From Balanoglossus misakiensis (taxonomy: Eukaryota > Animalia > Hemichordata): a stretch of 64,000 nucleotides of DNA. The notes under the pieces were generated by a model. It saw only the letters and a list, made by a program, of their open reading frames with translations. It was not told the origin of the DNA and searched no databases. The position numbers and the translations under genes were made by a program. Where the stretch lies: NCBI GenBank assembly GCA_040954595.2, contig CM082579.2, positions 11,657,834 to 11,721,833 of the forward strand, in the 5' to 3' direction. This document shows positions 1-6,110 of the stretch, one piece after another (the first letter of the stretch is position 1; every line of letters begins with the position of its first letter).

Positions 1-3000
1 CAGAATATAGTGATAACGTTTAGTCCGTACCAAATCGAGTTTCCTCATAATTTGCCAATTTTGCTAGAACTATACTGCTATCTTTACAATCTAAACATCA
101 AGTACTACCATACAATTTACTCTCTCTCTCTCTCTCTCTCTCTCTCTCTCTCTCTCTCTCTCTCTCTCTCTCTCTCTCTTTCTCTATCTCGCTCTCTCTC
201 TCTCTCTCTCTCTCTCTCTCAGGGCGTAAGTATGCCAAATAATGGATCGTTTTGGACATCGATTATTATTATTGCTGTTAAATAAGTATTAATTCGTTAA
301 ACCTTCAATCCTCTTATTCCTTAACAATGTGTACCAGAATATAGTGATTACGTTTAGTCCGTACCAAATCGAGTTTCCTCATAATTTGCCAATTTGCTAG
401 AACTATACTGCTATCTTTACAATCCAAACATCAAGTACTACCGTACAATTTACTCTCTCTCTCTCTCTCTCTCTCTCTCTCTCTCTCTCTCTCTCTCTCT
501 CTCTCTCTCTCTCTCTCTCTCTCAGAAGGTAAGTATGCCAAATATGGATCGATTTAGAACATCGATTATTATTATTGCTGTTAAATAAGTATTTTTCGTT
601 AAACCTGCTATCCTCTTATTCCTTAACAATGTGTACCAGAATATAGTGATAACGTTTAGTCCGTACCAAATCGAGTTTCCTCATAATTTGCCAATTTGCT
701 AGAACTATACTGCTATCTTTACAATCTAAACATCAAGTACTACCATACAATTTACTCTCTCTCTCTCTCTCTCTCTCGCTCTCTCTCTCTCTCTCTCTCT
801 CTCTCTCCCCACCCCCCAGGTGGTAAGTATGCCAGATATGGATCGATCTAGGACATCGATTATTATTATTGCTGTTAAATAAGTATTATTTCGTTAAACC
901 TTCAATCCTCTTATTCCTTAACAATGTGTACCAGAATATAGTGATAACGTTTAGTCCGTACCAAATCGAGTTTCCTCATAATTTGCCAATTTGGTAGAAC
1001 TATACTGCTATCTTTACAATCTAAACATCAAGTACTGCCATACAATTTACTCTTTCTCTCTCTCTCTCTCTCTCTCAGGAGGTAAGTATGCCAAATATGG
1101 ATCGATTTAGAACATCGATTATTATTATTGCTGTTAGAATAAGTATTATTTCGTTAAACCTTCAATCCTCTTATTCCTTATCGTTTATCGTTTGAGGAGA
1201 TATATTATTTTTGTATATGAAATAAGTATCATTTCTTTACACATCCTCGTTTGTTACTCCAAACATTCTAAACTGGAATATAGTGATAGTGTTTAGTTCG
1301 TACAAAATTGAGTTTCCTCATTATTTGCCATTTGCTAGTACTACCATAAAATTTACTCTCTCTTTCTCTCTCTCTCTCTCTCTCTCTCTCTCTCCCCCCA
1401 CTCTCTCTCTCTCTCTATCTCTCTCTCTCTCTCTCTCTCTCTCTCTCTCTCTCTCTCTCTCTCTCTCTCTCTCTCTCTCTCTCTCTCTCTCTCTCTCTCC
1501 CCCAGTTGGTAAGTATGCCAACTATGGATCGTTTTAGGACATCAATTATTATCATTGCTGTTAAATAAGTATTATTTCGTTCAACCTTCAATCCTCTTAT
1601 TCCTTAACAATGTGTACCAGAATATAGTGATAACGTTTAGTCCGTACCAAATCGAGTTTCGTCATAATTTGCCAATTTGCTAGAACTATACTGCTATCTT
1701 TACAATCTAAACATCAAGTACTGCCATACAATTTTCTCTCTCTCTCTCTCTCTCTCTCTCTCTCTCTCTCTCTCTCCCCCCAGGTGGTAAGTATGACAAA
1801 TATGGATCGTTTTAGTCCGTACCAAATCGAGTTTCCTCATAATTTGCCAATTTGGTAGAACTATACTGCTATCTTTACAATCTAAACATCAAGTACTGCC
1901 ATACAATTTAATCATCTCTCTCTCTCTCTCTCTTCTCTCTCTCTCAGGAGGTAAGTATGCCAAATATGGATCGATTTAGAACATCGATTATTATTATTGC
2001 TGTTAAATAAGTATTATTTCGTTAAACCTTCAATCCTCTTATTCCTTATCGTTTATCGTTTGAGGAGATATATTATTTTTGTATATGAAATAAGTATCAT
2101 TTCTTTACACATCCTCGTTTGTTACTCCAAAAACATTCTAAACTGGAATATAGTGATAGTGTTTAGTTCGTACAAAATTTGTGTTTCCTCATTATTTGCC
2201 AATTTGCTAGTACTACCATAAAATTTACTCTCTCTTTCTCTCTCTCTCTCTCTCTCTCTCTCTCTCTCTCTCTCTCTCCCCCCCACCTCTCTCTCTCTCT
2301 CTCTCTCTCTCTCTCTATCTCTCTCTCTCTCTCTCTCTCTCTCTCTCTCTCTCTCTCTCTCTCTCTCTCTCTCTCCCCCAGTTGGTAAGTATGCCAACTA
2401 TGGATCGTTTTAGGACATCAATTATTATTATTGCTGTTAAATAAGTATTATTTCGTTCAACCTTCAATCCTCTTATTCCTTAACAATGTGTACCAGAATA
2501 TAGTGATAACGTTTAGTCCGTACCAAATCGAGTTTCCTCATAAGTTGCCAATTTGCTAGAACTATACTGCTATCTTTACAATCTAAACATCAAGTACTAT
2601 CGTACAATTTACTCTCTCTCCTCTCTCTCTCTCTTCTCTCTCTCTCTCAGAAGGTAAGTATGCCAAATATGAATCGATTTAGGACATCGATTATTATTAT
2701 TGCTGTTAAATAAGTATTATTTCGTTAAACCTTCTATCCTCTTATTCCTTAACAGTGTGTACCAGAATATAGTGATAACGTTTAGTCCGTACCAAATCGA
2801 GTTTCCTCATAATTTGCCAATTTGATAGAATTATACTGCTATCTTTACAATCTAAACATCAAGTACTACCATACAATTTACTCTCTCTCTCTCTCTCTTT
2901 CTCTCTCTCTCTCTCTCTCTCTCTCTTTCTCTCTCTCTCTCTCTCTCTCTCTCTCTCTCTCTCTCTCTCTCTCTCTCCCCACCCCCAGGTGGTAAGTATG

Positions 3001-6000: not shown

Positions 6001-6110
6001 TCTCTCTCTATCTCTCTATCTCTCTATCTCTCTCTCCCCATCTCCCTCCCCCCTCTCTCTCTCTCTGTCTGTCTGTCTCTCTCTCTCTCTCTCAGAGGGT
6101 AAGTATGCCA
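1..6110 (+). repeat. Tandem array of ~160-560-bp units, each containing a (CT)n tract followed by CAG-NNN-GTAAGTA (candidate microexon array); runs off the window start
   Basis: Recurrent unit ...cagaatatagtgataacgtttagtccgtaccaaatcgag...tacaatttac(tc)n cag NNN gtaagtatgccaaatatggatcg...; 19 copies of the core motif counted. Confidence 0.95.
223..6098 (+). other. 19 candidate 3-nt microexons: 223 GGC, 526 AAG, 820 GTG, 1079 GAG, 1506 TTG, 1784 GTG, 1948 GAG, 2382 TTG, 2651 AAG, 2989 GTG, 3307 GGC, 3612 GTG, 3878 GAG, 4181 CGG, 4740 GGC, 5042 GTG, 5308 GAG, 5603 TGG, 6096 AGG
   Basis: Each triplet sits between a long polypyrimidine tract plus CAG acceptor and a consensus GTAAGT donor. Most tracts are preceded by a TTTAC branch-point-like motif. 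Intervening introns would be 161-556 nt. Same strand as, and directly upstream of, the Roco exons. Splicing itself is not demonstrated. Confidence 0.65.

Follow-up and report, generated by a model that had tools for sequence, protein, structure and literature searches.

The question raised by this locus is whether a run of CT-rich repeats in the hemichordate Balanoglossus misakiensis is made up of exons of a single codon each and, if so, what such exons would do for the Roco gene that follows them. The window, namely the whole stretch of DNA analysed, covers 64,000 nt of contig CM082579.2. Our reading of its sequence is that the repeats are tandem cassettes of an intron plus a triplet. The triplets are quite probably spliced, and we put at about even the chance that they are one-codon exons diversified both by variable inclusion and by reshuffling of the DNA.

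The preliminary description of this DNA had claimed 19 units of a pyrimidine tract, CAG, exactly 3 nt, and GTAAGTA on the plus strand. A search of the whole window on both strands with the pattern YAG-NNN-GTRAGT returned exactly these 19, all on the plus strand within 220-6105, with triplet starts from 223 to 6096, and no match on the minus strand or past 6200. The 40-nt stretch before each motif is 85–100% pyrimidine. All 18 CT tracts listed by TRF in 1-6100 end in the motif, as does a short CT tract before 1076 that adds to these 18; therefore, broken units were not overlooked by the pattern search. In dinucleotide shuffles of 1-6200 (n = 300), the motif occurred 0.03 times on average and once at most, which only shows that it is not compositional and nothing more, the units being duplicates. 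The triplet counts, putative intron lengths, and gap of about 400 nt reported earlier were recomputed and matched. The array and its borders are as follows.

1..222, plus strand: cut intron of the array, with the 3' part of a unit core, a branch-point candidate, a CT tract, and CAG (motif at 220)
223..6098, plus strand: array of 19 putative 3-nt exons and 18 paralogous introns of 161–556 nt
First bases 820, 1784, 2989, 3612, and 5042, plus strand: GTG (Val), five copies
First bases 1079, 1948, 3878, and 5308, plus strand: GAG (Glu), four copies
First bases 223, 3307, and 4740, plus strand: GGC (Gly), three copies
First bases 526 and 2651, plus strand: AAG (Lys), two copies
First bases 1506 and 2382, plus strand: TTG (Leu), two copies
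First bases 4181, 5603, and 6096, plus strand: CGG (Arg), TGG (Trp), and AGG (Arg), one copy each
6099..6494, plus strand: last intron, in which the 5' end of the unit recurs in diverged form (77%) and which ends in a T-rich tract and an AAG acceptor; 396 nt from array end to the acceptor of exon 6495

At positions 1-115, the unit core occurs once more, cut short and with 99% identity, so that the array goes past the window start, as had been proposed, and holds more than 19 units. An error of assembly could make the units seem too numerous, given 1.4-kb blocks that differ by three substitutions, but could not generate the pattern. The 19 triplets encode seven different residues. The array donors read GTAAGTAT in 17 units and GTAAGTAC in two, and none of the six donors that follow ordinary exons is as perfect. 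The AG-free zone ahead of the acceptor spans 44–239 nt in array units versus 20–50 nt in ordinary exons, and a yTnAy branch candidate lies directly upstream of the CT tract in 18 of the 19 units, at -30 to -229.

Such regularity might arise without splicing. A satellite within an intron, or an array that is dead and skipped whole, could carry a splice-like motif that came from a founding unit and was passively copied, and common motifs are expected among units that are 95–97% alike. Because the units are related, the motif common to them proves little, and the contrast between the triplet and the signals around it tells more. The CAG, the spacing, and the donor had been described as never changing, and all 19 units indeed agree at each of the ten splice-signal bases; of 172 flank columns, compared over 17 units after two with a deletion had been set aside, 86 are invariant, giving p of about 0.001 if columns are independent. 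No unit has a broken signal, and the diverged intron classes retain all ten bases though their next 45 bases differ at 9–19 of about 40 sites. Between these signals, no other 3-nt window of the unit varies as much as the triplet: its mean diversity is 0.52 versus 0.15 in 176 gap-free flank columns, and none of 174 background windows equals it. Seventeen pairs, drawn from 11 units, have flanks that differ by no more than 5% on either side; their divergence was 0.027 in the flanks and 0.294 in the triplets, about tenfold, and minimum-change counts gave Poisson p of 0.001 for nine standard units and 0.003 for 14 units; pairs and columns are non-independent and the units related, so that all of these p-values overstate independence, and the triplet needs about eight changes in total, one of which is an ordinary CpG transition (CGG/TGG). 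The per-position comparison across units, suggested earlier as a check, thus yielded invariant signals and a hypervariable triplet. Triplet change falls mostly at positions 1 and 2, and position 3 is G in 16 of the 19 units, which would fit a donor -1 base. The lack of stop codons among the triplets was also considered as support, and this argument was dropped owing to its low power with about eight changes.

A second repeat in the window serves as an internal control.

30656-64000: satellite with a 130-bp unit, about 256 copies that are 95–98% alike, reaching the window end

Its unit contains a chance look-alike of the array motif, CAG-GAA-GTAAGC, without a pyrimidine tract, a point in favor of the satellite account. 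In this satellite, however, triplet diversity is 0.01/0/0 (195 copies), and CAG and GTAAG are altered in some of 229 copies. The pattern is the opposite of that in the array: the triplet is constant and the signals are variable. Variation in an ordinary satellite is blind to splice logic, whereas here it spares the signals and is greatest in the triplet; moreover, the array occurs only on the sense strand and immediately upstream of exon 6495. Judged from these patterns, the array is unlikely to be a neutral satellite, and an array skipped whole appears quite improbable.

Other features were recorded in the window. Rfam gave no match in 1-33000, and TRF listed tandem repeats of 239 bp at 16924-19183, 169–170 bp at 19657-23893, and 42 bp at 24045-25538. 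Two sets of open frames lie before the satellite; the frames of the second presumably resemble a YqaJ-type nuclease fragment.

25641-27011, plus strand: transposase-like open frame of 456 codons with HTH and integrase core (PF24764, E 1e-74)
29931-30500, minus strand: short frames adjoining the satellite start

The layout of the CT-repeat units given in the preliminary description was confirmed, but the tandem paralogy of the introns had been missed. The array spacers are paralogous introns of about 300 nt, most of whose cores are 95–97% alike. The 222-nt core has 11 other full copies at 95–97% and more diverged, older classes at 76–84%, and within the window its copies are confined to 1-6190 on the plus strand. 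Two block duplications were found.

3304..6092, plus strand: recent duplication of four units (3304-4660 versus 4737-6092)
1076..2647, plus strand: older duplication of two units (1076-1780 versus 1945-2647)

The recent blocks align with 1338 matches, 3 substitutions, one of which is the CGG/TGG triplet transition, and 31 gap columns mostly in CT tracts; the older blocks align with 679 matches and 11 substitutions. Each older copy has one intron formed by the fusion of two classes, where the joint lacks an acceptor, a triplet, and a donor, and class-C homology begins within introns at 1181 and 2049. In the four-gamete test, site pairs that span the triplet failed in 116 of 546 cases, compared with 3 of 210 for pairs inside the upstream flank and 38 of 325 for those inside the downstream flank. 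The block duplications, fused introns, and four-gamete failures together indicate that the array grows and is reshuffled by recombination. On this sequence evidence, the tandem-paralogous introns add a second source of variation, namely reshuffling at the DNA level. As 99% of a unit is intron, unequal crossover would gain, lose, or swap whole codons with no frameshift.

These signs of DNA-level reshuffling also fit an account in which all triplets are constitutively included; each allele would then yield one fixed peptide, with unequal crossover and conversion between the paralogous introns, at the DNA level, as the only origin of diversity. In the available text of PMC4317164, constitutive rather than alternative micro-exons are reported to have strong sites and short introns, and the array, whose donors are perfect, pyrimidine tracts long, and introns short, agrees with that report. 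On the other hand, inclusion would have to be near-complete for each of at least 19 successive 3-nt exons, and the CU tracts correspond to sites of a PTBP1-type repressor; the same partial source describes, for mammals only, that PTBP1 binds the pyrimidine tracts of micro-exons and represses them (PMC4317164). In addition, 11 of the 19 units could yield a zero-length exon through a tandem site, as read from the motif matches (CAG-GAG, CAG-AAG, or GT straight after CAG), and the closest precedent, the truffle nank genes discussed below, is reported as alternatively spliced in the source text available. Sequence alone cannot decide between variable and constitutive inclusion, and we consider purely constitutive inclusion rather unlikely, as against cassettes whose triplets may be included variably.

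The gene that follows the array was resolved into seven ordinary exons.

6495..6708, plus strand: first ordinary exon, phase 0, with predicted helix, ROC strand 1, P-loop, and switch I (Pfam Roc, E 4e-5)
7794..8089, plus strand: ROC exon 2, open in the joined frame (Pfam Roc, E 0.037)
8365..8467, plus strand: ROC exon 3, with a short CT-rich acceptor
8785..8930, plus strand: ROC exon 4
9148..10411, plus strand: exon with the ROC end and COR-A/COR-B (Pfam COR-A, E 3e-15; COR-B, E 4e-4)
10640..10721, plus strand: linker exon, frame kept
11216..12458, plus strand: GT4 glycosyltransferase exon with the stop codon (Pfam GT4-conflict, E 1e-61)

The joined frame from 6495 to 12458 has 1115 codons and no internal stop, and encodes ROC-COR-GT4. 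Pfam Roc, COR-A, and COR-B were each recognized on single exons, in the order of a ROC GTPase followed by COR that defines a Roco protein, and the two Roc values fall under the curated cut-off because the domain is split over exons. GT4-conflict (PF20706) scored 209 bits versus a cut-off of 26, which identifies the C-terminal exon as a GT4-conflict effector. The predicted protein matches full-length hemichordate Roco proteins at 40–64%, and its closest named relatives come from the acorn worms Ptychodera flava (up to 64%), Glandiceps talaboti, and Saccoglossus kowalevskii; individually, the product of exon 9148..10411 is 60% to P. flava XP_070572439.1 and that of the GT4 exon is 53% to P. flava protein P0001. 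Between 10411 and 11216, the gene is without the death effector domain (DED) that P0001 has between COR and GT4 (residues 726-804). A long helical insertion lies within ROC between the two Pfam Roc stretches (7794-8089; helices 86-154 in the model of homologue P0012). The PDB search gave weak small-GTPase matches only, and the bacterial Roco structures 3dpu and 6hlu, which we take to be C. tepidum Roco, appeared at E 0.64–1.4, a positional hint only. No locus related to exon 6495 was found among the prokaryote genomes or viral contigs searched.

For the triplets to matter to the protein, translation must enter the gene ahead of exon 6495. Three homologues align at 85–86% from codon 1 of this exon, immediately preceded by a Gln that a CAG acceptor could encode, and therefore the exon is in phase 0. 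The preliminary description had stated that the ROC exon has no start of its own, and its first Met is indeed codon 27, in the strand preceding the P-loop, with no Met in the first 26 codons. These codons are conserved in frame (nearest matches 75–92% over the exon), and the P0012 model places a helix at residues 2-16 followed by ROC strand 1, with pLDDT of 71–85 for residues 1-20. As 26 Met-free codons are conserved, translation must start upstream of 6495; the start codon and the upstream exon fall beyond the window. Given phase 0 and an upstream start, any included triplet would be an in-frame codon, in agreement with the frame compatibility proposed earlier. Two alternative acceptors were weighed and judged less likely: 6198 sits within a decayed repeat copy, and 6522 would remove nine codons that homologues retain from residue 1. 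A perfect donor-like GTAAGT site also occurs 16 nt into exon 6495 (6511-6521, with CAG at 6519-6521), whose use as a donor would break the frame.

The same data bear on the idea that the units are ratchet points of recursive splicing, or 5' UTR micro-exons, that aid removal of a long intron and leave the protein unaltered. A zero-length AG-GT junction can be read in the 11 units mentioned above but is absent in the other eight, and spacing 0 to a strong donor behind a pyrimidine run was never seen in the motif search of the window. Many P. flava models begin at the internal Met, which would place the array in the UTR, but the in-frame conservation of the 26 pre-Met codons and the helix and ROC strand 1 of the homologue model speak for coding sequence there. 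As ratchet sites would also leave the fast change at positions 1 and 2 unexplained, this possibility is highly improbable.

With respect to the acorn-worm relatives, seven of the ten retrieved P. flava proteins (P0001-P0004 and P0019-P0021) have as their first residue the internal Met in the P-loop strand, as expected if upstream exons are hard to model, and these models are probably truncated 5'. Four Glandiceps models have a common, ordinary-looking upstream segment with a W..ENT motif, one has an N-terminal DED, and the Saccoglossus relative has ankyrin repeats; thus, the array is not a family-wide rule. The Roco family exchanges its terminal modules, namely DED, ankyrin, and GT4, at one end or the other. 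None of the N-termini of these Glandiceps and Saccoglossus models resembles the triplet-coded residues by eye. Protein searches for these residues returned only database models and short proteins that continue past both exon ends as a translation of genomic DNA would, and the unit motif gave 14 single matches in metagenome contigs, several with stop triplets, and no array.

How could a 3-nt exon be spliced? The array donor is complementary to U1, and GTAAGTAT would pair with U1 through intron bases alone, leaving the exon bases free to vary. The long AG-free CT tracts with an upstream branch point may allow the two flanking introns to be removed one by one. On very short exons, U1 and U2 are thought unable to occupy both sides simultaneously, according to the part of PMC10250204 available, and with such crowding the flanking introns would go in turn. 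Exon skipping likely adds variation between molecules, by analogy with the truffle nank genes, and the number of distinct residue subsequences possible from the 19 triplets was computed as 308,452, an upper bound.

A mutually exclusive choice, by which one or very few triplets enter each transcript and give a single hypervariable residue in the manner of Dscam, was also considered. Distant branch points go with some mutually exclusive exons, and the AG-free zones with distant branch candidates, together with the variety of encoded residues, would suit such a choice. However, redundant codon copies such as the five GTG and four GAG speak against it, as does the space that introns of 161–556 nt provide between the donor and the branch point of every unit. 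We regard this choice as very unlikely, compared with variable inclusion of the one-codon exons.

As for function, the variable peptide would extend the helix before the GTPase domain, where other Roco proteins have an N-terminal sensor or adaptor, and its likely role would be to vary the recognition or activation threshold of a candidate immune effector. This immune role is a candidate one, suggested by the family context. Our broader proposal, offered tentatively, is that this Roco gene builds its N-terminal segment one residue per exon, and that skipping and frame-safe recombination turn the segment into a variable region at the level of codons; the design would be convergent with that of fungal NLRs, and similar arrays may lie unannotated ahead of many acorn-worm Roco paralogues with database models that begin at an internal Met. 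If the triplets are spliced, an animal would have many minimal exons in succession, and the array would offer a natural setting in which to study how the spliceosome copes with 3-nt exons placed one after another. The truffle NLR mechanism would then be known also from a Roco gene of a deuterostome, near the chordate lineage, and the locus would bear on the question of whether immune-type proteins of invertebrates are diversified residue by residue. The many acorn-worm Roco models without an N-terminus would in that case be accounted for as well. Such arrays get masked as CT microsatellites.

The preliminary description knew of no described system of this kind, a statement that does not hold, since codon-sized alternatively spliced micro-exons have been reported for the nank NLR genes of Tuber. 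In Tuber melanosporum, the nank (NACHT-ankyrin) genes are described, in the accessible portions of the sources, as having tens of alternatively spliced codon-sized exons (Iotti et al. 2012, via PMC4986451, PMC13449251, and PMC3689799). As far as these portions go, the present array, with at least 19 codon-sized exons predicted from sequence up to its cut at the window start, may resemble nank in having tens of such exons, and both concern a P-loop NTPase, an expanded candidate family for non-self recognition, and a proposed diversification of the protein. However, nank is a fungal NACHT-ANK with reported alternative splicing, whereas the present gene is an animal Roco with COR and GT4 and predicted exons; with ROC-COR-GT4 in place of NACHT plus ankyrin, the array works like nank without being a member of it.

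The micro-exon genes (MEGs) of Schistosoma, Echinococcus, and Hymenolepis provide a second comparison. They are described in the text available from PMC7653826 and PMC4015677 as having runs of frame-symmetric micro-exons, a likeness to the array, of mixed sizes, as encoding proteins that vary by as little as one residue via skipping, and as hard for gene finders. By the operational MEG definition in the available part of PMC7653826, 19 of the 26 predicted exons in the window would be micro-exons, in a run of 19. The same partial sources describe MEG products as small, mostly secreted proteins with micro-exons making up to 75% of the coding sequence (PMC7653826, PMC4015677), whereas the array units are all 3 nt, lie between tandem-paralogous introns, and would supply 57 nt to a coding sequence of 3.4 kb or more, in front of a 1115-residue multidomain ROC-COR-GT4 product, which is not a protein of the flatworm-MEG type.

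Among Roco genes themselves, those of brown algae have one LRR per exon before ROC, with shuffling, diversifying selection, and alternative splicing, according to the available parts of PMC11378527 and PMC3341825. Tandem modular exons N-terminal to ROC are common to both, but the brown-algal module so described is a whole LRR, whereas the array module is one codon, with 3 nt between splice signals and no folded repeat. The GT4 end also has a known counterpart: the accessible text of PMC8195603 reports GT4 fusions in hemichordates, cephalochordates, and cnidarians as conflict effectors and proposes an immune effector role in marine invertebrates. In the AP-GTPase-COR systems described there, as in the present gene, GT4 occupies the effector position after a Roco-type GTPase-COR (PMC8195603), whereas LRR-GTPase-COR-GT4 is given in that text for bacteria and without exon structure. 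Within the literature covered, which was incomplete and without supplements, no such report was found for Roco genes, for hemichordates or other deuterostomes, or for tandem 3-nt arrays, and the supplements of PMC8195603 may list the architecture. Based on these comparisons, the array is a variant of a known, little-studied kind, and is notable for its occurrence in a deuterostome and in a Roco gene.
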